Positions 10,124-62,800 of a stretch of DNA of 64,000 nt are shown in pieces. This DNA comes from an uncultured bacterium (lineage in GTDB: Bacteria > Armatimonadota > HRBIN16). The position numbers were made by a program, and so were the translations under genes. Location: the NCBI GenBank assembly GCA_938027655.1, contig CALJAP010000021.1, forward strand, positions 15,879-79,878. The letters are read 5' to 3'. The stretch's first letter is position 1, and every line of letters begins with the position of its first letter. The notes below the pieces were generated by a model that was not told the DNA's origin, ran no database searches, and saw only the letters and a program-made list of their open reading frames with translations.

Positions 10124-11677
10124 ATGCAAAATCTGGGAGTGAACCCCAGCCGGTATGGGCTGGAGATGCACGGGATTAAGGATGCAAGGGTAGCGCTGTG
10201 GAATCTCGGCACTGCCCAGCTGATAGAGTACAGCTTAAGCCAGCAGGAAGGTGTGCTGGCATCAGGGGGCGCGCTGGTGGTGCGTACCGGGCAGCACACC
10301 GGGCGTTCACCACAGGACAAATTCGTCGTTCGCGACCCCGACGTTGCCGACAAAATCTGGTGGGGGTCGGTAAACCAGCCGTTCGAGCCGGAGAAGTTCG
10401 ACGCGCTTTACAAGCGAGTGCTGGCGTACCTGCAAGACAAACGCCTGTTTGTGCAGGACTGCTTCGTGGGAGCGGACGAGCGTTATCGCATCCCGATTCG
10501 TGTGGTGACGCAATATGCGTGGCACAACCGGTTTGCCCGCCAGCTGTTCGTTCGCCCTGACTGGACAAAAACCGGTGAGCACAAGCCGGAGTTCGTTATC
10601 GTGTCCGCGCCCGGTTTTCACTCGGACCCAGAGACAGACGGCACGCGGTCGGGGGCGTTCATCATTGTCAACTTCACCAGACGAATCATCCTCATCGGCG
10701 GCACCGAGTATGCCGGTGAGATGAAGAAGTCCATCTTTACGATTATGAACTACCTGTTGCCCGAACAGGGCATACTGTCCATGCACTGCGCTGCGAACAT
10801 GGGACCGGGAGGCGATGTGGCGCTGTTTTTTGGGCTGAGCGGCACCGGCAAGACCTCCCTTTCTGCGGACCCCGAGCGACGCCTCATCGGCGACGATGAG
10901 CATGGCTGGAGCGATGATGGTGTCTTCAACTTCGAGGGCGGATGCTATGCCAAGTGTATTCGTCTCTCGAAGGAGAACGAGCCACAAATCTGGAACGCCA
11001 TCCGCTTCGGCGCGGTGCTGGAGAACGTGGCGATCGATATGCAGACACGCTTACTGGATTTCAACGATGCCAGCCTTACCGAGAACACCCGCGCGGCATA
11101 CCCGCTGAGTTTCATCGAGAACGCGGTCATCCCCAGCGTAGCAGGGCATCCGAAGAACGTGTTCTTCCTGACCTGCGATGCCTTCGGCGTGTTGCCTCCG
11201 ATTGCCCGCCTCACCGAAGAGCAGGCGATGGAACAGTTTCTGCTGGGCTATACGGCGAAGGTAGCAGGTACCGAAACCGGCGTCACCGAACCGCAGGCGA
11301 CCTTCAGCACTTGCTTTGGCGCTCCCTTCTTGCCGTTGCCGCCAAAGACATACGCCAACCTGTTAGGCGAACGCCTGCGCAAGCACAAGGCGCAGGTGTG
11401 GTTGGTGAATACCGGCTGGACAGGTGGTCCCTACGGAGTCGGACATCGAATCAGTATCCCATATACACGAGCGATGGTGCGCGCCGCGCTGAAGGGCGAA
11501 CTGGATGACGTGGAATACCGCTTAGACCCCGTGTTCGGCTTGCGTGTGCCGACGGTGTGCCCGGGTGTCCCTTCCGAGATACTGGACCCGCGCCAGACGT
11601 GGCAAAACAAAGAGGCATATGATGAACAGGCTCGCAAGCTGAAAGCGATGTGGGACGAGCAGATGAAGAAGATATAA
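10124..11677 (+). CDS. pckA: Phosphoenolpyruvate carboxykinase (ATP)
   Basis: 517 aa, with kinase-1a motif GLSGTGKTS and ...RSPQDKFVV.... Strong RBS GGAGAGGAGGA. Confidence 0.92.
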
Positions 11678-11682
11678 CACGG

Positions 11683-11706
11683 GGGCAACCGCAGAGGTTG
11701 CCCCAA
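11683..11706 (+). other. GC-rich hairpin GGGGCAACC-gcaga-GGTTGCCCC just after the pckA stop, with no U-tract
   Basis: Perfect 9-bp stem. The same GGGGCAACC/GGTTGCCCC motif seeds the 19-bp tandem array at 61163. Confidence 0.5.
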
Positions 11707-39160: not shown

Positions 39161-39456
39161 TTCATCCGTATGCTATTTCCCGGAAGGACACGGATTGACA
39201 CAGATGAGACGAATTGGCACAGATACTATCCGTGTTCATCCGTTGCATCGGTGTTTATCCGTGTGCTATTTCCCGGAAGGACACGGATTGACACAGATGA
39301 GACGGACCGGCACAGATACTGTCCGTGTTCATTCGTTGCATCGGTGTTTATCCGTGTGCTATTTCCCGCAAGGACACGGATTGACACAGATGAGACGGAG
39401 CGGCACAGATACTATCCGTGTTCATCCGTTGCATCGGTGTTTATCCGTGTGCTATC
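39161..39456 (+). repeat. 93-bp tandem direct repeat, about 3.2 copies, each unit a strong hairpin
   Basis: Unit TTATCCGTGTGCTATTTCCCGGAAGGACACGGATTGACACAGATGAGACGGACCGGCACAGATACTGTCCGTGTTCATTCGTTGCATCGGTGT contains the stem ATCCGTGT/ACACGGAT. Copies are 90-95 % identical. Confidence 0.85.
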
Positions 39457-39475: not shown

Positions 39476-39856
39476 ATGCTACACAAACAGTTGACCAACA
39501 AAATCATCGCTGCATTCTACAAGGTGTACAACACACTGGGGTACGGCTTTCTGGAAAAAGTGTATGAGAACGCGCTCGCCCACGAGCTGCGTCAGCAAGG
39601 TTTGGATATACGTCAACAGATGCCTATCAAAGTGTATTATGACGGTCAGGTGGTAGGAGAGTATGTCGCTGATTTATGCGTAGAGGGATGCGTGATCGTG
39701 GAGATTAAAGCGGCAGAGTCGTTATGTCCTGAGCACGAAGCACAGCTGCTCAACTATCTGAGAGCCACCGAGATAGAAGTTGGATTGCTGTGCAATTTTG
39801 GTCCGCAACCTGTATTCGCTCGAAAAATACTCACCAACGACAGAAAAGAAACCTAA
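39476..39856 (+). CDS. GxxExxY protein (PD-(D/E)XK-like small protein, TIGR04256-type)
   Basis: GYGFLEKVYENAL matches the GxxExxY motif. The product is 126 aa with a strong RBS GGAGG. Local GC is below that of its surroundings. Confidence 0.7.
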   Translation: MLHKQLTNKIIAAFYKVYNTLGYGFLEKVYENALAHELRQQGLDIRQQMPIKVYYDGQVVGEYVADLCVEGCVIVEIKAAESLCPEHEAQLLNYLRATEIEVGLLCNFGPQPVFARKILTNDRKET

Positions 39857-40805: not shown

Positions 40806-43109
40806 TCAGTACGCCCACCCTCCGCCTGTCTCCAGCGACTGCCCGAACTGTCCGATGCCAAACCTCTGCACCTCGTGGAAGGCTTTGATGCGTAGGCGGA
40901 AGATCACCTCGCGGTCGGCACGGAAGCCCAGCGGGTTGTCGATATACCCTACGCTCAACTCCCAGCAGTGCAGGTCCCACGTCAGCAGGAGCTGCCTGCC
41001 CTCAAAGCGATTCACGTAGCCGTTGTAGGTGAGAACGGTCTGCACGCGCAGGGGCATTCGGAATATCTGCGTGTCCAGCCAGAGGTTCGCGCTCGCCCAG
41101 CGGTGGCGGATGGGGTCGTACACTCCGTTCAAGTTCATCGAGAAGGGGGCGGTGCGGGCACGCAGGTATGCACGCAGATAGTTCCACTGCCCCTCGTTAA
41201 GGTTCAGCGTGGATTGCACATTCAGCTGCCATGCGGGGTTCGGTTGCCACAGCACGCCCAGGTTCAACGGCTGCCAGGGGCGGCTGCCACGCTGTCGGGC
41301 AAAGAGGTCGTAGCCGGTATACGCCCGGACGGATAGAGCGCGGCTCGCGTTCCACTCCAGCCCCGCCGAGGCGAAGTTCGTGGCGCCAGTATACTCCGTG
41401 CGCAGGGGGGTAAATCCATACGGACGCAGATAACGGTAGTTCATATACCATCGGCTGTTTTGCCCGAAGCGCAGCTGCCAGTCGGAGTTACCTTGCAGGA
41501 TATACTGGGCGGTTCCATCGCTGGTAAACACCTGTCGGAAGAGGGCGGAGGTGCTCAACGAGCTTCTGCCTCCGCTGGAGGTGGTAGGGGTCCAGCGGGC
41601 TTCAAACAGCACACGCTGAATCGGATTGCCCTGCGGCAGCTCGCGGAAACTGCCCAGCCCCAGCTGCATCTGTAGTCCCATCTCCTTACCGAACAGACGG
41701 CGGTCGGTGGTAGAGAGGAGCAGCTCGGGCGTTTTTTCGATGCCGCCGAAGGTGAAGCCTCCCGTCTGCCCACCGATGGGGATAATCCGGTTGAAGGCGA
41801 GGCTCCAGTCAAACTTGCTACTGCTGCCGCTTAGTGAGGCTTGCGTGGCGAGCTGTTCTTGCTCGGAGCGCACCTCCCCGCCCGATTGCGAGCGGAAGCG
41901 CGACAGGTCGGTAGAGAAGGTCAGCGAGGCGCGCGTGCCCCAGCGTTGATTCCATCGGAGTGAACTGGTGGAGGAATCGGTAGAATAGCCCGCACTGCTC
42001 TGCTGGCTGAGACGCGAGAGAAGGGACAGGTTGCCCGACGACCACGCCCGGCTCAAGCTCACCTGCCAGCTGGATGCACGGGTATCCGAGTAGTACAGAT
42101 AGCTTCCCGAACGCAGGTCGCCAGTAAGCCGTGCGTTAAAGCCCAGCAGTTGCTGTTCATGGCGCAGCTGCGCGGTGACGGAGCGGGTAGCGCGACTGCG
42201 GTCGTTCAGGTAGTAGAACGAAAGGAGCCCGGCAGCGCCCTTCCAGAGATACTGCTGGTCGACGCCCAATCCGATACCCTTTTTCTGCATCAGGTCAATG
42301 CGCGCCGTGCCCGCGTTGTCGCCCAGCAGGTAGCCCAGCGCGGTCTTCACATAATACCCCTCTTCCACCGACTGCCCGACCTGCGGCAGGGTACCACGCG
42401 AGAGGCGTCTGTCCAGCGGCACCACCAGCGTGGGTAAGGTAAACAGTTTGCGACCCAGCGCATTCAAGCTGACCGCTCGTGCTACCAGACGCTTATCCAC
42501 CACCACGTCCACGCTGCGGGTGGAAAAATGGTAATGTGGGTGCTCCAGCAAACAGGTAGTCGCCTCACCGTGTTGCATCTGGGCATGCTGTTGCTCTCCT
42601 TGCAGTTGCTGCCCGGACAGACGCACCGCACCACGCAGCTGATTTTTGAGAAACTCGGGCAGGAGGTCTGCGCTCGCGCCCTGCATCTGCCACGAGCGTC
42701 GGCGCACATTCAGGCGAAGCATCTCGCCACGTGCGTCCATTCCACCGCCCTCCAGAGTGACCCTGCCCTGAAACAGGTACTCGCCCCTGTCCAGATTGCC
42801 TTCCACGCTTTCTGCCTGAATGGTGTACTCGCGCCAGCGGGCGAGGATGTCGCTCGCCAGCAGGTTGTTCTGGGCGTCCAGAAAAAGGGTGCCGAACCGC
42901 TCGACATCCAGTCGTTCCACCCTGCGCGAGATGGCTTCGGCAGGTGGTTGCGGTTGTTGGGCGAGGGCAATGCCACTATAGAACAGCAGGAGGGTGAGGA
43001 AGAGGGGGAGGAACCTAACCCCCTGTCCCCCTTCCCTACAAGGGAAGGGGGTGCTTTCTGCGCGGCTCCCCTCTCCTCGTAGGAGAGGGGTCGGGGGTGA
43101 GGTCATCAT
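40806..43109 (-). CDS. Outer-membrane beta-barrel protein, possibly LptD/OstA-like
   Basis: The signal-like segment FLPLFLTLLLFYSGIALAQQ follows an odd 30-aa N-terminus. The protein is 768 aa, beta-rich, and ends in an aromatic residue (GGGWAY). ATG ATG at 43109 has RBS GGAGGTGA. The track ORF runs upstream to 43547. Confidence 0.4.
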   Translation of the reverse strand: MMTSPPTPLLRGEGSRAESTPFPCREGGQGVRFLPLFLTLLLFYSGIALAQQPQPPAEAISRRVERLDVERFGTLFLDAQNNLLASDILARWREYTIQAESVEGNLDRGEYLFQGRVTLEGGGMDARGEMLRLNVRRRSWQMQGASADLLPEFLKNQLRGAVRLSGQQLQGEQQHAQMQHGEATTCLLEHPHYHFSTRSVDVVVDKRLVARAVSLNALGRKLFTLPTLVVPLDRRLSRGTLPQVGQSVEEGYYVKTALGYLLGDNAGTARIDLMQKKGIGLGVDQQYLWKGAAGLLSFYYLNDRSRATRSVTAQLRHEQQLLGFNARLTGDLRSGSYLYYSDTRASSWQVSLSRAWSSGNLSLLSRLSQQSSAGYSTDSSTSSLRWNQRWGTRASLTFSTDLSRFRSQSGGEVRSEQEQLATQASLSGSSSKFDWSLAFNRIIPIGGQTGGFTFGGIEKTPELLLSTTDRRLFGKEMGLQMQLGLGSFRELPQGNPIQRVLFEARWTPTTSSGGRSSLSTSALFRQVFTSDGTAQYILQGNSDWQLRFGQNSRWYMNYRYLRPYGFTPLRTEYTGATNFASAGLEWNASRALSVRAYTGYDLFARQRGSRPWQPLNLGVLWQPNPAWQLNVQSTLNLNEGQWNYLRAYLRARTAPFSMNLNGVYDPIRHRWASANLWLDTQIFRMPLRVQTVLTYNGYVNRFEGRQLLLTWDLHCWELSVGYIDNPLGFRADREVIFRLRIKAFHEVQRFGIGQFGQSLETGGGWAY
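43015..43095. repeat. Two adjacent REP-like palindromes (CCCCCTTCCC-tacaa-GGGAAGGGGG and CCCCTCTCC-tcgta-GGAGAGGGG)
   Basis: Perfect 9-10-bp GC stems. A third copy, CCCCTCTCCC-tgtg-GGAGAGGGG, lies at 45861-45885. Confidence 0.6.
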
Positions 43110-45683: not shown

Positions 45684-45860
45684 CTCCTATCGAAATGTGT
45701 TCTCGCCCTTAATTTAATGCAAAGTCTGTACCAAAGGTGCTGGGCAAAATACGGGTTGTTGGCATAGTGCGGCAGAAAAACGGCAAGATTGCTGTCAGTA
45801 AACTTGCGGGGAAACCCGTTGCAAAAGCTGGTCTAACGATGATGAAAGCAGGAGCATCTC

Positions 45861-45885
45861 CCCTCTCCCTGTGGGAGAGGGGACG
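45861..45885. repeat. REP-like palindrome CCCCTCTCCC-tgtg-GGAGAGGGG downstream of ggt
   Basis: Same stem sequence as the palindrome at 43063-43085. Confidence 0.55.
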
Positions 45886-45917: not shown

Positions 45918-47480
45918 TTACCACCCCGCCGCGTGACCGTCACAGCGGGGGTCGGAACCGGCAAGGAGCGCCTTGCTTTGGGGATGCACCGCAATCACCT
46001 GCACCGCTCCCGATTGCCCCCAGTCGGGTAACAGCAGCACGCGATGCCCCTTGCGCTCCAGCTTTTGCAGGGTCTCCATCGGCGTGCGACGCTCGACTTT
46101 CAGCCCTTCCGGGTCGTGCTGCCAGCGGGGGGCTTCCACTGCCTCCTGGGGGTTCATGCCGAAGTCTATCAGGTTGCAGATAATCTGCGTGTTGCTCTGT
46201 ACCTGCACATCGCCACCCGGCGTGCCGCCCACGAAAGCCAGTTCGTCGCCGCGCGTCAGCAGGTAGGCGTTGAGGGTGTGCGCGGTACGCTTGACCGGCT
46301 CCAGCGCGTTGGGGCTGTTGGGGTCTAACGAGAAGCCCGTCATACGGTTGTTGAACAGGATGCCCGTGCCTTCCGCTACCTGCATACACCCAAAAGAGTG
46401 GAAGATGCTCTGGATAAAGGAGATGGCGTTGCCGTAGCGGTCCACGACGCAGAAGTAGGTGGTGTCATGCTCAATCTCGCCGGCGGTGACGCGGTCGGCG
46501 GCGCGGTTCAGGTCTATCTGCTGGCGGCGTCGCTCTGCATACCCTTTGCTCAGCAGAACGTTCATCGGCACGTCCACAAAGCGCGGGTCGCCAAGGTAGG
46601 CGTGCCTGTCCGCGAAAGCGAGTTTCTTCGCCTCCACCTGCAGGTGGATGACCTCCGCGCTGAGCGCGCCCATACTGCGCAGGTCGTAGCCCTCCAGCAG
46701 GTTCAGCATCTGCGCGAGGATATGTCCTTGTGATACGGGCGGTTGCGCGTGCAGGGTGTACCCGCGGTACTCCACGCGAAGCGGTTCCAACCACTCGGCG
46801 GGCGGCTGCGCGAGGTCCTCTTCCGTACACAGTCCCCCGTGGTGCTGGCAATGACGCACGATGCGCTCGGCAATCTCGCCCCGATAGAAGTCCATCGGTC
46901 CGGCGGTGGCGATGCGGGTCAGCGTCCAGCCGAGGTTCGGCTGGGTGACCATCTTGCCCGGGTAGGGTAGCTCCCCGTCAGGCACCAGCTCGCGCCAGGT
47001 GATGGGGAACTGTCGCAGCAGGTGCTCATGCGCAGCAAACACCTGACTGTAACGGTAGCCGGCGGGAAACCCCTGCTGGGCGTAGCGGATAGCGGGCTGG
47101 AGCAGTTCCGAAAGCTCACGGGTGGCGTATCGCTCGTGCAAAAGCGCCCACGCAGATACCAGCCCGGGTACCGACGCGCTCTGCATACCGCGTGCAGGGA
47201 TACCGTCGTGGAAACGCTCGCGTGTCGCCGCACGCGGGGCAGGACCGGAGGCGTTGAGCGCATGCGTCTGACGTGTGCGGGCGTCGTACACTATCACAAA
47301 AGCGTCTCCACCGAGGTGGCTGTTGTAGGGCTCGATCACCGTCAGCACCGCGCTGATGGCGATCGCGGCATCTACGAAGTTACCACCTTCCTGTAGCACA
47401 TGCAGTCCCACTGCCGTTGCCAGCGGTTGAGAGGTTGCCACCGCCCCGTTTCGGGCAACCACGACGCCACGATAGGTCAT
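45918..47480 (-). CDS. ggt: Gamma-glutamyltranspeptidase
   Basis: 520 aa, with the autoprocessing-site region ...TTYFCVVDRYGNAISFIQS.... Confidence 0.85.
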   Translation of the reverse strand: MTYRGVVVARNGAVATSQPLATAVGLHVLQEGGNFVDAAIAISAVLTVIEPYNSHLGGDAFVIVYDARTRQTHALNASGPAPRAATRERFHDGIPARGMQSASVPGLVSAWALLHERYATRELSELLQPAIRYAQQGFPAGYRYSQVFAAHEHLLRQFPITWRELVPDGELPYPGKMVTQPNLGWTLTRIATAGPMDFYRGEIAERIVRHCQHHGGLCTEEDLAQPPAEWLEPLRVEYRGYTLHAQPPVSQGHILAQMLNLLEGYDLRSMGALSAEVIHLQVEAKKLAFADRHAYLGDPRFVDVPMNVLLSKGYAERRRQQIDLNRAADRVTAGEIEHDTTYFCVVDRYGNAISFIQSIFHSFGCMQVAEGTGILFNNRMTGFSLDPNSPNALEPVKRTAHTLNAYLLTRGDELAFVGGTPGGDVQVQSNTQIICNLIDFGMNPQEAVEAPRWQHDPEGLKVERRTPMETLQKLERKGHRVLLLPDWGQSGAVQVIAVHPQSKALLAGSDPRCDGHAAGW

Positions 47481-48169
47481 TCGCCCGGCTCCTTTCCCCG
47501 TTGCAGTTCCGCCTCCAGCGCGCGCACACGGGCTTCCAGTTCCGCTGCCTGTTCGGCGAGCTCCATTGCGGTCGGGATGGCACGTCCTTTCGTGGGATCG
47601 TAGAGCCGCACCTTATATCCCTCATCCTCTGCCCGTACCACGATGGATAACCCCAGCCGCTCGCTATGAGCGCGCCACTCACGGTCGTTCGGTCGCTCGT
47701 TGGGAATCCGCTGGTACTCATGCCCAACCAGGCGGTGCAGCATCACAGGCTCTATGAGGTAATCGCGTGTGACATCTATCAGGATGTACTCCTTCACGCC
47801 CAGTCGTTGGTAGAGCCGGTATTTCCTGCCCAAATCCTCCGGTGCGGTAGAGCGGGAGGTCAGTTCGAATATCACATCCGGCGCTTTGCCCATCTCCCAC
47901 ACTTTCCACGTGGGGCGCCAGGGGCGTTTAGGCACTCCGAATGCCACATACACATCGGGAGCAACGCGCTGAGAGGGGTTGCCCTCAATCCAGTACATGA
48001 ACTGATTACCCGCTACATACACATCTTCGCGCCCGGCGAAGTACCGCATCAGCGCGTCCAGCAGATACAGCATCGCTTCCAGATGTTCAGGCGTCTCTGC
48101 CATTGGCTTCCCATCCGACACAGGATAGCGTACGCTTTCTATTGCCTGCGAGATTGCCATCGGCATCAC
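47477..48169 (-). CDS. Uma2-family (DUF820) putative restriction-endonuclease-like protein
   Basis: YVAGNQFMYW...APDVYVAF...APDVIFELTS...EYILID (PD-(D/E)XK). Coiled-coil C-terminal tail. Confidence 0.75.
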   Translation of the reverse strand: MMPMAISQAIESVRYPVSDGKPMAETPEHLEAMLYLLDALMRYFAGREDVYVAGNQFMYWIEGNPSQRVAPDVYVAFGVPKRPWRPTWKVWEMGKAPDVIFELTSRSTAPEDLGRKYRLYQRLGVKEYILIDVTRDYLIEPVMLHRLVGHEYQRIPNERPNDREWRAHSERLGLSIVVRAEDEGYKVRLYDPTKGRAIPTAMELAEQAAELEARVRALEAELQRGKEPGE

Positions 48170-51640: not shown

Positions 51641-52798
51641 TTATTCAGGCCCCGCAGGAATTGCCTGCCCCTGTGCGCTATCCCAACCATGCAGGTTGCC
51701 GTCCAGCGCGCACAGCACGTTCGAATGCTGTGCCTCCAGTTTTGCTTCCTCGGTGATGTCGTGTCCACCCACTGCTGCCATGCAGGGATAGCCCGCCTTG
51801 CGCATCAGCTCGGCACGACGACGCGCCCGGGCAACATCGCTTACATCGACCACCATCGAAACTTCCATCACCAGATAAATATCCCTGTCCGGTGCGTCTA
51901 GTGGGCGTCCGCGCGCGATGATGTCCGCCGAGAAGATGTCCACTATTTCATCGCCAGCGAGCGCTTGCCTGACCTGCTCCTCGATGTCCGGCGGTGACAA
52001 CAGCCGTACGCGGCGCATTACCTTGCCCAAGTAGGCGTGGATGTGCTTGGCGTAGTGCATCTCCAGACGCCAGCCGCGCAGGTCGTCGATGTGCACATCG
52101 CGCACCTTCTGCCATTCCACCAGCCTGTCTATCTTCTCTGCCAGTAGCGCTATCTGCATATCGATGCGGTCTAGCCTGCTGTTAGTTGCCTCACGATAGG
52201 AGGAGAACTCCTCCACCACACGGTTGTGGCTTTCGGTCAACGCCTGTAATGCCGCCTCAATGCGTGCGAAACGCTCCTCTGATGCCTGGCGATACGCGGC
52301 AAACTCCTGTGCCAGATGCTCCAGCGCCGCCTCAATGCGTGCGAAACGCTCCTCCGATGCCTGGCGATAGGCAGCGAACTCCTGAGCCTGACGCTCCAGC
52401 GCCGCCTCGATTCGTGCGAAACGCTCCTCCGACATCTGGCGGTAAGACACGAACTCCTGAGCCTGACGCTCCAGCGCCGCCTCAATGCGTGCGAAACGCT
52501 CCTCCGATGCCTGACGATACGCGGCAAACTCCTGTGCCAGATGCTCCAGCGCCGCCTCAATGCGTGCGAAACGCTCTTCCGACATCTGGCGGTAAGACAC
52601 AAATTCCTGTGCCTGACGCTCCAGAAGGGACTCGATCCGCGCGAATCGCTCGGCGGATTGCTCGGCTAATCGCTCCACCTTTGCAGGCAGGGCGAGGAAC
52701 TCGTCCGGCGCGAGGGCGACAAACACCTTTCGGCGCAGCTCCGCATTGCTACGCAGAAGCTCTATCAGTTCTTCTACATCGGGAGTGTCGATAGGCAT
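51641..52798 (-). CDS. Coiled-coil protein built from 25-aa (75-bp) tandem repeats, with a C-terminal domain possibly of restriction-endonuclease-like fold
   Basis: EERFARIEAAL(E/H)(R/L)(Q/A)AQEF(V/A)(S/A)YRQ(M/A)S repeated about 5.5 times at near identity. The C-terminal 150 aa contain D...DIYLVMEVS...D in a PD-(D/E)XK-like arrangement. Confidence 0.5.
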   Translation of the reverse strand: MPIDTPDVEELIELLRSNAELRRKVFVALAPDEFLALPAKVERLAEQSAERFARIESLLERQAQEFVSYRQMSEERFARIEAALEHLAQEFAAYRQASEERFARIEAALERQAQEFVSYRQMSEERFARIEAALERQAQEFAAYRQASEERFARIEAALEHLAQEFAAYRQASEERFARIEAALQALTESHNRVVEEFSSYREATNSRLDRIDMQIALLAEKIDRLVEWQKVRDVHIDDLRGWRLEMHYAKHIHAYLGKVMRRVRLLSPPDIEEQVRQALAGDEIVDIFSADIIARGRPLDAPDRDIYLVMEVSMVVDVSDVARARRRAELMRKAGYPCMAAVGGHDITEEAKLEAQHSNVLCALDGNLHGWDSAQGQAIPAGPE

Positions 52799-59600: not shown

Positions 59601-60485
59601 GGCTTCGGCGACAGGGTACGCTTGCGATGGCATACCGGCATCGTCGGGGCGCATCATGCCAACCTGCTGGAGGAACCCCTGCAAGCCCTTTCTCTGCAGG
59701 ACGGAGCGGTAGAGTTCCCGCTGGATAGCTTCGCCATCGAAACCTTCCTGCTGAAGCCGAAACCTTTTACCCCGAAGGGCGGACGCCGTGTGCTGGGCGC
59801 AACGACCGAACCCGTGCAGCCGGTGTACGTGCGCTACTGGCAACACAATCTCGGCGCCGACCCCATCGGCTACCTGCCGGTGGCGGTGAGCCTGCGCGGA
59901 GAGGTGAAGACGGGTATCCACATCCGCCAGGGAGGCGTGACGGTCAACACGATCGAGGTGGGCGTCGTGAATAACCTACGCGACCGCAACGCGACGGGCG
60001 TCGTTCGCCTAATCGTCCCGGAAGGCTGGCACACTGTGCCTGCGGAGATTCCGTTTGACCTGCCTCCGGGCGAGGCACACTGCTGGAAGGTGCTGCTCTG
60101 CTTCGACACACCGCGGCGGACGGGTGTGGTGCGCGCCCGGCTGGAGTGGGATGGGCAAACTTATGAGGATATTCTGGAGGTCGGACGCGAGTACTTCCCC
60201 GAATGGGATGTACATCTCGTTCGGAATGCGCTGCTCGTGCGCCTGCGCAACGGCACAGACGACCTCATCCATGGCGCGGTGCAGGTGATTACGCCACTGG
60301 AGACATGGGGCGACGCCGCGGGACTATACCGCCTGACCGCTGGCGGCAAGCACACGCAGGGTTTCGGTCTGCAACCCGACGAGCGTGCGGAGATACGCTT
60401 CGAGGGGGAGCCACCGCCCGGGCGAGGCTTCATCATCGTAAAGGTGATGGCGCATGGCAAGGTAGAGTACCGCAAGGTACAATAA
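56670..60485 (+). CDS. GH38-family alpha-mannosidase
   Basis: VVPGFHSDVVWLEDQ and ...GGSHSQPTETVIGGEGIVRNILYGRWY... match the GH38 N-terminal catalytic domain. 1271 aa. Confidence 0.7.
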   Translation: MAQRTCTYVVPGFHSDVVWLEDQRDYAVSLLGDMHQNLQILRIDPRYGVFLHELTYLKPYLDTHPEALPEVRRWVQEGRIGTGGSHSQPTETVIGGEGIVRNILYGRWYHEGVLGDQPWIYMPWDVFGHTAQLGQILRKSRFRGCIWSKDIRGALAVFWHLALDGEPLLFKRMGYWLPSGDPETFLKAIDDFFQEMRSLGFTADCRLDCVDFKPPTAWMAGRCEELAGREHAVIISGIGHEQWFEHAFRQHEERTVSIPVTSRDYEWHHQGTGLSRIELKIGNRLAEQNLHQAEFFATVAHLLGAEYPDKALDKAWRQLLFNQHHDGIAGPSCDRAYLDMMAGFREALELAHDVRSRSLRYICDQTDTAYTAPPPTVIALQVHNALGWSRTDAVHVTLRFPKPVSGFRIEDSEGNAVPCQLESPVPPRLPLHEAEVTLLARDIPAMGFRTYRVVETDSLPPAPRLIPGYAIENEFFRVTADPQLGGGLSSLFDKQAGREVLNPQAGPGNEIVALLEKADRAEPAWECYTLGPKWFSRDYAANVQAWQGPVQSRLVIRGEMRSCEREQVVSLTQGVRRIDFATQLQRYRGENELFVVTFPVNVQNAEPVFEERFGAITKRKSKGKLDFRFHQWRNFSECGARHACQWVDLSGAAWVRFADGQQRPFGMCHLVTSHHPASVQAAYTLQRALIRKGVPCTPVYDDFDAPRRLQLPVEDTILPFPNNPNEDLSLGMSFRVVFSLNGDNTYLSDLMAHLPETQATRLQALLSEQQGIALVDDPDMPDGWQPLPVLVIAAKDEATLQQMVQQLSEQIEQSAAIVLPAEANLLQRPIPADSYGVALVNTGNVLNSVENDNTMVLFLMHTAAWGGTPWGKPDRLPFVFIPEHKTHLFRYSLYPHRGDWREAQTARVGWEVNNPLQTVQGMLHGGALPLDYSFLQVEAKGAILTALKPADNPTGRFESGAVDAERGSIVVRLYDPTGFGDRVRLRWHTGIVGAHHANLLEEPLQALSLQDGAVEFPLDSFAIETFLLKPKPFTPKGGRRVLGATTEPVQPVYVRYWQHNLGADPIGYLPVAVSLRGEVKTGIHIRQGGVTVNTIEVGVVNNLRDRNATGVVRLIVPEGWHTVPAEIPFDLPPGEAHCWKVLLCFDTPRRTGVVRARLEWDGQTYEDILEVGREYFPEWDVHLVRNALLVRLRNGTDDLIHGAVQVITPLETWGDAAGLYRLTAGGKHTQGFGLQPDERAEIRFEGEPPPGRGFIIVKVMAHGKVEYRKVQ

Positions 60486-60505
60486 AGGCCGGAGGTGGGC
60501 GAAGC

Positions 60506-61162
60506 ATGCAACCCGCGCTGAAAACCGACAAGATGACCATGACCTATGAGGAGTTCCGTCAGTGGGCAGGGGAAGATACCTGTGCCGAGTGGGTGGATGG
60601 GGAGGTCATTTTACCGAGGCCACCAAAGAGAAAACATCAGTCTATCACTATATTCCTGACCCGATTGCTGAGTGATTTTCTGGAACTCACCGGGCAGGGA
60701 GAAGCGATTGCCGCTCCTTTTGAGACCTTTTTACCCTCTCGCCCAGCATCGCGCGAGCCGGATATAATCGTGGTGCTCAGTGAGAATCTGCAAAAGTTGA
60801 GCGAGGAACGCTTCACCGGTGCCCCTGACCTTGTGGTGGAGGTGGTTTCGGAGGATAGCGTGCGCCGTGACCGGATGGAGAAGTTTCTGGAATACGAGCG
60901 CGAGGGCGTGCGCGAGTACTGGCTGGTCGATTCGCGCCCGGCGCATCTGGGGGTAGATGTCTTCACGCTGGAGCAAGGCAGTTTCGTGCCTCTCGTGCCG
61001 AGTGAAGAAGGCTGGCTGGAGAGCAAGGTGCTGCCCGGCTTCCGGGTGAAGGAGACGTGGTTTACCGGGCAATCGCTTCCTGACGTGTACAGCGCGTTGA
61101 GCGAGATGCTGTCTCCCGATTTAAAGCAGAAGCTGGCGCAGAAGCTGGGCATCCCCCTGTAG
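60506..61162 (+). CDS. Uma2-family (DUF820) putative endonuclease
   Basis: MTYEEFRQW...AEWVDGEV...PDIIVV...APDLVVEVVSE...REYWLVD. The ATG at 60506 has RBS GGAGGTG. The track ORF extends upstream to 60203. Confidence 0.8.
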   Translation: MQPALKTDKMTMTYEEFRQWAGEDTCAEWVDGEVILPRPPKRKHQSITIFLTRLLSDFLELTGQGEAIAAPFETFLPSRPASREPDIIVVLSENLQKLSEERFTGAPDLVVEVVSEDSVRRDRMEKFLEYEREGVREYWLVDSRPAHLGVDVFTLEQGSFVPLVPSEEGWLESKVLPGFRVKETWFTGQSLPDVYSALSEMLSPDLKQKLAQKLGIPL

Positions 61163-61397
61163 GGGCAACCCTATGTGGTTGCCCCTACCCTATGTGGTTG
61201 CCCCTACCCTGTGTGGTTGCCCCTGCCCTGTGTAGTTGCCCCTGCGCTATGCGGTTGACCCTACCCTATGCGGTTGCCCCTGCGCTATGTGGTTGCCCCT
61301 GCCCTGTGTGGTTGCCCTGCCCTATGTGGTTGCCTCTGCCCTATGTGGTTGCCCTGCCCTATGCGGTTGCCCCTGCCCTATGTGGTTGCCCCTGCCC
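61163..61397. repeat. Tandem array of a 19-bp unit CTATGTGGTTGCCCCTGCC, 12 copies with point variants (two units are 18 bp)
   Basis: Head-to-tail copies with no spacers. The period is not a multiple of three. The array begins with the hairpin GGGGCAACC-ctatgt-GGTTGCCCC. It fills the entire gap between the convergent stops at 61162 and 61405. Confidence 0.9.
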
Positions 61398-61404
61398 GCG
61401 CAAT

Positions 61405-62550
61405 CTATCCTATCGCTTCCAGCTCTTTCTGCAGCACCTCGGTATAGGTTGGGTCGTCTTCGTCAATCTTCTCCAGCACCGCCTTCAGCAGGTTGATGTA
61501 GCTGATGTCGGTGGGGTTCACGCCGTAGAGCAGCGCGAGGTAGCAGCTCACCCAATCGCCGAAGTAGATGGCATAGAGCATTCGCGCCAGCAGGCTCTGC
61601 CCCTCGGCAAACACTTCGTGCACCTGCGCTGCGCGGGCAAACAGTCGTTTCGTCGTCTCCACACGCGCCACGATTTTCGGTCGCTCCGCATGGTCGCGCA
61701 ACAGCACTACTGCCAGATTGGGAACCTGTTGCTTCGCCAGCACCCACCCCAGGATTTCGTTGTGGTTCATCTCGGGGTAGCCATTGGAGAAAGCGTGAAT
61801 CTTGGTGTTCTCGTTCAACTGCGTCTTCCAGCGAAAGGCGACGACGGTGGAATACGCCTGCGAGCCGTAGATGAGGGGCAGCTTGCCGTACAGCCCCGCA
61901 GCAAGCTGCTTGGCAGGGTTCTTCTCGAACGGCACATCGGCGTTCCACTGCTCTCGTGCCCGCTCCAGCAAGGCGATAGCGTTCTGCAGGTCACCGGTGG
62001 GATCACGTCGGAGGACACCCGCCTTATGCGCCGCCATCAGCATAGGGATAAACAGGTAGCCCATCGCGCTGCGAGGGGGCTGTCCCTTAGGGATAAACGC
62101 GACAGGGGTGCCGTAGTGCGCCGCGCGTTGAGCCAGCTCGCCACCGCTGGTTACGCACGCCAGAAGCGCGCCCCGGTCCTGTGCGTCCTCGAACGCGCTC
62201 AGCGTTTCCTCGGTGTTGCCGGAATAGCTGGCAGCGATCACGAAGGTATGGTCGTTCACGAAAGCGGGCATCTGGTAGTCACGGTTCACCACCAGAGGCA
62301 CTTCGCCGTTGTCTTCTACCAGCACGCGCAGCAGGTCGCCCCCTACCGCCGAGCCGCCCAGCCCCGTCACCACAACATTCTGGATAGGCATGCGCGGTGT
62401 AGGAGGATTGAACTGCTTCGCGATGTCCAGTGCTTTGCGACATTGTTCGGGGAAGTCATGGGTCAGGGGAATCATATTCTGAGCATCCAGCACGGAACGA
62501 CGCGCCGCATCGTCCAGCACGCTGGTGTCTACCGCAACCTGATCGGACAT
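61405..62550 (-). CDS. Bifunctional phosphoglucose/phosphomannose isomerase (SIS-domain PGI/PMI family)
   Basis: SYSGNTEETL, tandem SIS domains and the C-terminal PGI/PMI signature. Start at 62550 has RBS GAAGGAGGAG. Confidence 0.75.
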   Translation of the reverse strand: MSDQVAVDTSVLDDAARRSVLDAQNMIPLTHDFPEQCRKALDIAKQFNPPTPRMPIQNVVVTGLGGSAVGGDLLRVLVEDNGEVPLVVNRDYQMPAFVNDHTFVIAASYSGNTEETLSAFEDAQDRGALLACVTSGGELAQRAAHYGTPVAFIPKGQPPRSAMGYLFIPMLMAAHKAGVLRRDPTGDLQNAIALLERAREQWNADVPFEKNPAKQLAAGLYGKLPLIYGSQAYSTVVAFRWKTQLNENTKIHAFSNGYPEMNHNEILGWVLAKQQVPNLAVVLLRDHAERPKIVARVETTKRLFARAAQVHEVFAEGQSLLARMLYAIYFGDWVSCYLALLYGVNPTDISYINLLKAVLEKIDEDDPTYTEVLQKELEAIG

Positions 62551-62569
62551 TACCTCAGCTCCTCCTTCA

Positions 62570-62800
62570 TCACTCCGCCACAAAGGGCAGTAGAGCCAGA
62601 TGGCGCGCCCGCTTAATCGCCTTAGCCAGCTGTCGCTGGTGCTTGGCGCAGTTACCACTGGTACGTCGTGCGACAATCTTGCCCCGATCCGTGATGTATC
62701 GGCGCAAGCGAGCCACGTTCTTGTAGTCGATATAGGCGACTTTATCCACGCAGAAGCCGCACACCTTGCGGCGTCGCCGGTAGCGCGGTTTGTTGGTCAT
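62570..62800 (-). CDS. rpsR: 30S ribosomal protein S18
   Basis: [55 protein letters not shown]. Confidence 0.95.

Follow-up and report, generated by a model that had tools for sequence, protein, structure and literature searches.

Two genes converge within the 64-kb window, by which we mean the whole stretch of DNA analyzed here, and the gap between them is filled by a GC-rich hairpin and a tandem array that begins inside it (Table 1). The upstream gene encodes an Uma2-family (PD-(D/E)XK) nuclease, and its start codon is uncertain by a few codons. Its TAG stop at 61160-61162 is at the same time the TAG of a GTAG tag (61159-61162) that opens the hairpin. From the other side, the minus-strand gene for a bifunctional phosphoglucose/phosphomannose isomerase (PGI/PMI) ends 8 nt past the array. 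The genes neighboring the array are Uma2, GH38, PGI, and then rpsR-ssb-rpsF. The exact PGI/PMI protein is on record in metagenome-assembled genomes of Armatimonadota/Chthonomonadetes from hot springs or the subsurface, and a protein look-up returned no exact record for the Uma2 and pckA proteins of the window.

Table 1. Coordinates of the principal features in the window
Feature	Position	Strand	Details
pckA ORF	10124-11677		PF01293
Stand-alone hairpin	11682-11704	+	GGGGCAACC-GCAGA-GGTTGCCCC; folding energy -22.3 kcal/mol
Uma2-family (PD-(D/E)XK) nuclease gene	60509-61162	+	Pfam PF05685, E=9e-33
GTAG-tagged hairpin, putative REP type	61159-61188	+	Perfect 12-bp stem
Head arm of hairpin	61159-61170		GTAGGGGCAACC
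Loop of hairpin	61171-61176		CTATGT
Tail arm of hairpin	61177-61188		GGTTGCCCCTAC
Tandem array, 12 units	61171-61396	+	Tandem Repeats Finder and unit table
Bifunctional PGI/PMI gene	61405-62550	-	Pfam PF10432

The initial annotation of this DNA had placed a perfect hairpin, GGGGCAACC-CTATGT-GGTTGCCCC, at the start of the array. That sequence is present, but the stem is longer than described and pairs over 12 bp (GTAGGGGCAACC/GGTTGCCCCTAC); the G of the tag is its first base, and 9 bp are left when pairing of the tag is not counted. As RNA, the hairpin has a folding energy of -24.3 kcal/mol on the plus strand and -25.5 kcal/mol on the minus strand. Intrinsic (Rho-independent) terminators combine a GC-rich hairpin with a U-tract. 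Here the hairpin is found with no T-run on either strand, and a consensus scan returned 0 terminator-like sites in 60400-62700; the absence of a T-tract rules out a canonical intrinsic terminator. The hairpin may act as a terminator or as an mRNA stabilizer. The array body folds no better than shuffled sequence (z = 0.03 and -0.16, Watson-Crick pairing), and with z near 0 and no T-tract terminator predicted, the proposal that the array substitutes for a bidirectional terminator is unsupported. A search of the whole window against Rfam gave no family at the gathering score, and the only match below that score was mir-194 on the hairpin itself (27.8 bits against a cut-off of 52).

Tandem Repeats Finder reports a single array at 61169-61397 with a period of 19, 12.2 copies, 88% matches, and a score of 346. 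Split in register, with units starting at 61171, 61190, and so on to 61378, the array resolves into 12 head-to-tail units, 10 of them 19 bp long and two (units 8 and 10) 18 bp long, exactly as first described. The scattered A/G and T/C variants that had been noted are also borne out by our unit table, in which the differences among units are chiefly such transitions and are found in the loop as well as in the arm core. The unit boundaries relate the array directly to the hairpin. Each unit comprises the loop, the tail arm, and 1 nt (consensus CTATGTGGTTGCCCCTGCC); unit 1 is the hairpin's own loop and tail (far) arm, and units 2-12 are extra direct copies. With up to three mismatches allowed, the consensus has 11 matches in the 64-kb window where 0.03 would be expected. 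For the 9-mer GGTTGCCCC, 10 matches compare with an expectation of 0.75, and every one of them is in the array or in the hairpin at 11682-11704. The period is not a multiple of three and both flanking genes end outside the array, which upholds the view that it is non-coding. Like CRISPR arrays, it is intergenic and built of short, partly palindromic direct repeats. CRISPR repeats are separated by unique spacers of similar length, however, whereas the period here is 19 bp and the repeat is half a palindrome. Because the units abut (periods 19, 19, ..., 18, 19, 18, 19 bp) and leave no room for a spacer, a CRISPR array is ruled out, as the initial annotation had concluded.

Using the PGI and GH38 proteins as anchors, we retrieved this locus from related assemblies. 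In sister lineages with a PGI-side flank identity of 93-94.5%, a gap of 34-35 bp holds a lone hairpin, with the loop CTTGT in L010-L014 and CTTGTA in L264-L266; Uma2 orthologs are present in L010-L014, L264, L265, and L269. In L263, another of these sister lineages, which has no Uma2 gene, the hairpin (5-nt loop) follows the GH38 mannosidase gene, and its TAG serves as the GH38 stop. More distant relatives have no array and carry other cargo between GH38 and PGI, for example an EcoRI-type restriction-modification pair or small ORFs. Contigs nearly identical to the window carry the array in other versions. One of them, L001, spans it fully with 9 units and has flanks 99.96% identical (1 mismatch in 2596 bp), and another, L269, which is 99.57% identical over 7.5 kb, enters at least 16 units before it ends inside the array, although these copy numbers come from short-read metagenome assemblies and may be imperfect, with some arrays partly misassembled. 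The same unit types recur in the L001, window, and L269 alleles, in different order. Because relatives have a lone hairpin and near-identical contigs have differing arrays, the single GTAG hairpin is the ancestral state of the gap; the expansion is recent (less than ~5% sequence divergence), and the resulting array is hypervariable.

Bacterial minisatellites, or variable-number tandem repeats (VNTRs), consist of head-to-tail units of 10-100 bp whose copy number is polymorphic between close relatives. With 9, 12, and at least 16 units between flanks that are 99.6-99.96% identical, the array belongs in this class. Like other VNTRs, it is intergenic, varies in copy number and unit order among near-identical strains, and breaks short-read assemblies; it differs from them in that its origin can be traced to a specific hairpin and in its strictly directional relation to the GTAG tag. 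A hotspot of slippage or recombination had been among the first suggestions for this DNA, together with a comparison of array lengths among strains. Made across assemblies, that comparison yields different lengths, set against a single hairpin in the sister lineages, and the locus behaves as such a hotspot would.

The slot between GH38 and PGI (60486-61404 in the window; L005-L022 and L263-L267) is a variable island in its own right. L263 has nothing in it; the window, L010, and L264 have Uma2 there, L006, L007, and L267 an EcoRI-like restriction-modification pair, L005 an uncharacterized 388-aa ORF, and L015-L022 small unknown ORFs. Across L263 and the Uma2 lineages, the same GTAG hairpin gives a stop codon to whichever gene precedes it.

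An assembly artifact, that is, a spurious expansion or a read chimera around a single hairpin, would fit several features of these data: all of them are short-read metagenome assemblies, three more contigs from this population (L002-L004) terminate within the array, and one sample (ERZ6863514) yields two array versions that differ. The array is nevertheless found at this locus in independent assemblies as well (L001, L002, L269) and so is not an artifact of one assembly. Independent contigs enter it from both flanks and contain the same unit types in unique variant orders, L001 spans it, and analogous arrays occur in many unrelated assemblies, as described below. We regard an artifact as extremely improbable.

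It is also highly unlikely that the array is a selected element, whether as a series of iteron- or operator-like binding sites or as a 3' untranslated region whose structure (G-quadruplexes on the PGI mRNA strand, for instance) tunes expression of PGI or Uma2. Its spacing is a regular 19 bp, it forms part of a housekeeping gene's 3' untranslated region, and its minus strand contains 23 runs of three or more G, mostly paired as GGG-CA-GGGG once per unit, so that a G-quadruplex on this strand is a possible candidate structure. Against selection, the array is absent from all of the relatives at 93-94.5% identity and varies greatly within the population, it has no neighboring gene for a replication initiator or regulator, and the Rfam and folding results given above offer no sign of a conserved structure. 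Changes hit both the loop and the arm core, and the arm is therefore not obviously better conserved. Iterons are direct repeats of 17-22 bp that lie beside a rep gene or an origin; given the neighbors listed above and the absence of the array from sister strains, they are ruled out. The binding-site array that had been put forward initially thus finds no support, and the array presumably has no selected function. Its presence is likely to have effects all the same: the 3' untranslated region of PGI now crosses the G-rich strand of the array, with ~230 nt more before the hairpin is reached, and alternative hairpin registers and assembly breaks would follow as well.

The hairpin from which the array starts resembles repetitive extragenic palindromes (REPs). 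In the published rules, a REP has a fully paired stem of 7-20 bp and a loop of 2-5 nt (PMC6006769) or 2-20 nt (PMC3733652), with a GTAG (or GTGG) tag 0-2 nt 5' of the hairpin. Hallmarks of the GTAG-REP superfamily are the tag, a stem of 5-13 bp, and a TAG that serves as the stop of flanking ORFs; its members favor convergent or unidirectional gaps and occur in Chloroflexi, Cyanobacteria, and the PVC group (PMC3733652). In the window, GTAG stands at 61159-61162, the stem has 12 bp, and the loop of 6 nt is borderline under the narrower rule (PMC6006769). The position agrees too, with the TAG of the tag ending Uma2 here and GH38 in L263, and with PGI convergent. Judged by its sequence, the hairpin can be assigned as a putative GTAG-tagged REP-type element, which it matches in tag, stem, loop, stop-codon supply, and convergent position. 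Like GTAG REPs (Di Nocera et al. 2013, PMC3733652; Quentin et al. 2018, PMC6006769), it combines GTAG with a perfect GC-rich stem of 9-12 bp and a short loop, ends the upstream ORF with its TAG, sits in a gap where ORFs converge, and occurs in genomes of the Chloroflexi, Planctomycetes, and Cyanobacteria type, clustering with related hairpins in other genomes. It differs in being low-copy in the window, with one tagged copy in 64 kb; GTAG REPs have tens to thousands of dispersed copies in a genome. GTAG REPs also have a cognate RAYT (TnpA-REP, a Y1 HUH transposase), typically flanked by REPs, but a phmmer search with a RAYT-like query found no homolog among the ORFs of the window, which covers 64 kb of this genome. 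Finally, classical REP families are mostly lineage-specific, whereas here the same 26-nt sequence recurs across phyla.

Only two copies of the stem occur in the 64-kb window, one with the tag and one without. The untagged copy is the stand-alone hairpin that had been reported to follow pckA; we find it at 11682-11704, 4 nt past the pckA stop, with the 9-bp stem in common with the array hairpin and no GTAG tag. We tried the stem alone as a family marker and rejected it, as GGGGCAACC...GGTTGCCCC also forms A/T-flanked terminators in Pseudomonas, Fibrella, and others. Since untagged terminators with the same stem occur in unrelated bacteria, the stem is not diagnostic and the pckA hairpin is only a possible relative of the array hairpin. 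The link between the two hairpins is weaker than the initial annotation implied. The broader statement that a short GC-rich palindromic family has expanded at this locus is supported in refined form: the family can now be described as GTAG-tagged and of REP type, and only the loop and the untagged arm have expanded.

A scan of one genome per species for GGGGCAACC-N3-9-GGTTGCCCC found at least 120 loci in many phyla, with Dehalococcoidia, Anaerolineae, Caldilineaceae, Acidobacteriota, Planctomycetota, Fibrobacteres, and Armatimonadota among the matches listed. On one strand, GTA directly precedes the stem in 76 of the 121 hairpins listed (66 of 120 loci), where we estimate a chance expectation of ~3%. 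Read in the orientation of the tag, the most frequent loops among the matches listed are CTTGT (16), CTTGC (11), CCCTGT (9), CCCCGT (7), CTCGT (5), and CTCGC (5). In ~14 of the 76 tagged hairpins listed, the TAG of the tag is the exact end of a long ORF, and the neighbors of the listed hairpins are often similar hairpins with other stems (GTAGGGGCGACC... or ...GCCTGCCCCTAC). Three of the listed matches come from one uncultured-bacterium genome (CAZOGB01), and one of these has the CTATGT loop of the window. We also considered a mobile unit composed of the hairpin and Uma2 and rejected it, given only 1 weak Uma2 match among the 120 hairpin loci listed, a second Uma2 gene in the window that has no such hairpin, and the L263 hairpin that has no Uma2. 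This second Uma2-family gene (47477-48169, minus strand) is divergent in sequence and lies in a run of ORFs on the same strand, with no GTAG hairpin at its end. A viral origin was likewise rejected, with only 2 GTAG-tagged hairpins of this stem in a viral contig collection; the same collection contains 16 arrays, most of them with match spans consistent with an 18-bp period.

The layout of the array recurs elsewhere. A metagenome scan for three direct copies of GGTTGCCCC at a spacing of 14-21 bp gave at least 120 loci. Among the 121 arrays listed, periods range over 14-21 bp with no preference for multiples of three, copy numbers range from 3 to 13, and 49 arrays start from an inverted arm, 45 of which carry the GTA head. 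Examples are L182 (13 x 21 bp), L209 (8 x 19), L250 (8 x 15), L166 (7 x 18), and L217 (7 x 16), the last of which likewise lies between convergent genes. In 28 of the 45 GTA-headed arrays, the unit is an unbroken segment from inside the hairpin, consisting of 0-6 nt from the end of the head arm, the loop, and the tail arm, and the point of entry into the interior varies by locus. In the other GTA-headed arrays, the unit is the tail arm plus downstream flank, with 1-7 nt (mostly 2-5) in common with the end of the loop. Arrays of 3-5 units are present in genomes as well, in Anaerolineae (L090, L060) and Bacteroidota (L142).

These arrays are strongly one-sided. Among the matches listed, 43 classifiable arrays run away from the tag, 2 have a tag on either side, and no more than 2 lie on the head side. 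The same direction appears at smaller scale in genomes, where orphan extra tail arms lie downstream of 7 of the 76 tagged hairpins and essentially none lie upstream, again among the matches listed. A coding constraint on the head side is ruled out as the cause of this bias, because head sides and tail sides abut gene ends about equally often (5 of 30 and 6 of 30, respectively). GC skew was tried as a guide to the direction of replication and was set aside, the signal being too weak.

Eight of the 121 listed arrays lie in frame inside ORFs for RAYT-like Y1 transposases, with periods of 15, 18, or 21 bp, and separate the HUH motif from the C-terminal helix. One of these ORFs, that of L182, scores above the Pfam Y1_Tnp cut-off. 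About 3 of the 121 listed hairpins are also inside RAYT-like ORFs (L051, L101, L130). The RAYT-like ORFs with in-frame tail-arm arrays are L182, L166, L190, L191, L244, L248, L167, and L250; in L182, the 13-copy array encodes an NTDTVAP repeat, and a second hairpin in reverse orientation encodes ...RATARVAPT. A different arrangement is found in the metagenomes Ga0233403/4, where an organism of ~42% GC has at least 9 dispersed copies of a composite element (L148, L154, L163, L164, L175, L198, L210, L216, L219). In this element, two GTAG hairpins stand head-to-head, each with 3-6 outward tail-arm units, between conserved outer flanks. The composite resembles a REPIN or MITE into which variable arrays have been built.

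Taken together, the alleles and the recurrence of the layout make it likely that the array is a slippage-driven minisatellite derived from a REP-type hairpin. The ancestral gap held one hairpin, GTAG-GGGCAACC-loop-GGTTGCCC-CTAC, which gave the upstream gene its TAG stop and at which the convergent transcripts would have ended. In the lineage of the window, a segment of 19 nt, comprising the final base of the head arm, the loop, and the tail arm, would then have been duplicated. This segment is bounded by the short direct repeat ACC, with one boundary between ...CAACC and CT... and the other directly after ...CTACC; in ancestral-type sequence, ACC microhomology occurs 18/19 nt apart. Once two direct copies were present, slipped-strand mispairing or unequal sister-strand exchange could expand and contract the array, with point mutations building up afterward in single units. 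In single-stranded DNA, every tail arm is a possible partner for the lone head arm, and such pairing would favor misalignment. Although this mechanism is inferred, the variation of breakpoints from locus to locus, the mutations throughout the unit, and the fast turnover of units all fit slippage. Slippage alone leaves the tail-side direction unexplained, because a palindrome offers symmetrical microhomology.

The direction bias, the conserved tag and loop, and the hairpins within RAYT-like genes keep an enzymatic or strand-specific contribution as the main rival. Specifically, a GTAG-guided HUH enzyme of the RAYT/TnpA-REP type could add tail-arm units through successive rounds of cleavage and strand transfer on the 3' side of the hairpin that it binds. 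TnpA-REP cuts between C and T, 5' or 3' of the REP, and is guided by GTAG (PMC8266576), and the unit in the window can be written with such a C-T boundary on both sides. The strict orientation, which gene proximity does not explain, would follow from an enzyme of this kind, and the conservation of tag and loop orientation across phyla, with loops that fit C(C)YYGY, suggests recognition by a protein; the arrays and hairpins inside RAYT-like ORFs, including the L182 ORF, point the same way. However, CT dinucleotides are too common to be diagnostic, unit boundaries vary between loci, and the units of several arrays (for example, L166, L250, and L171) have no CT or CA at all, which argues against a simple RAYT cut-and-join reaction at the C-T site (PMC8266576). 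The 64-kb window also has no RAYT homolog, and the published literature has no half-REP tandem arrays arising from a RAYT reaction. We therefore consider it unlikely that such an enzyme made the array in the window. The more general proposition, that tail-arm arrays are a strictly oriented by-product or component of the GTAG-REP/RAYT system, is likewise improbable, if slightly less so. If it is true, a GTAG-guided HUH enzyme, or a strand-specific process that this enzyme imposes on the hairpin it binds, adds copies of the untagged arm on the 3' side, and the arrays are footprints of REP processing, among which the in-frame arrays of RAYT genes and the head-to-head composites of Ga0233403 would be counted.

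Tandem arrays of REP-derived sequence are known from REP/REPIN clusters, in which units of ~70-184 bp are repeated head-to-tail in up to ~12 copies and for which no mechanism has been established (PMC3116915, PMC3337134). The array in the window has in common with these clusters (Bertels & Rainey 2011, PMC3116915) that REP-derived sequence is reiterated head-to-tail. The clusters differ in that they repeat whole REPs or REPINs together with flanking DNA, and BIMEs alternate in orientation, whereas here the repeat is only half a hairpin, 14-21 bp of loop and untagged arm, and the tagged end retains one intact hairpin. One complete hairpin is present and all other copies are direct repeats of one arm, which sets the array apart from a REPIN or BIME. 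In the REP/RAYT literature that we searched, we found no description of tag-oriented arrays of loop plus untagged arm with units of 14-21 bp, although absence there is not proof of novelty.

On its own, the array in the window is an ordinary-looking VNTR, yet it provides a clean evolutionary series and a pointer to a recurrent, oriented phenomenon. To the questions of how REPs spread and why they form ordered arrays, the locus contributes a before-and-after series that leads from one hairpin to 9, 12, and at least 16 units. Taken with the analogous arrays, of which there are at least 45 and which are nearly always tag-distal, this series suggests a simple and testable rule for hairpin-driven repeat expansion. 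RAYT activity might also be read out from such arrays. For practical purposes, the array in the window is a strain-typing marker and a predictable break point of short-read assemblies in hot-spring Armatimonadota.

Other repeats are present in the window as well. At 39164-39455, a 93-bp unit occurs in 3.1 copies with 94% matches and is itself built of short ATCCGTGT, ACACGGAT, and CACAGAT motifs. This block lies directly upstream of an ORF that starts near 39477, which from its N-terminal sequence is a candidate for the PDDEXK_3 (PF13366) gene of the window, and a regulatory or mobile role for the block is possible. Within the long ORF 51641-52798 on the minus strand, positions 52251-52624 contain ~5 copies of a 75/150-bp tandem repeat, which is probably coding. 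Finally, a second family of GC-rich hairpins appears three times within 3 kb (43027-43051, 43068-43090, and 45859-45883), in the forms CCCCCTTCCCT-ACA-AGGGAAGGGGG and CCCCTCTCC...GGAGAGGGG, and similar hairpins fill the PGI-side intergenic region in L006 and L007.
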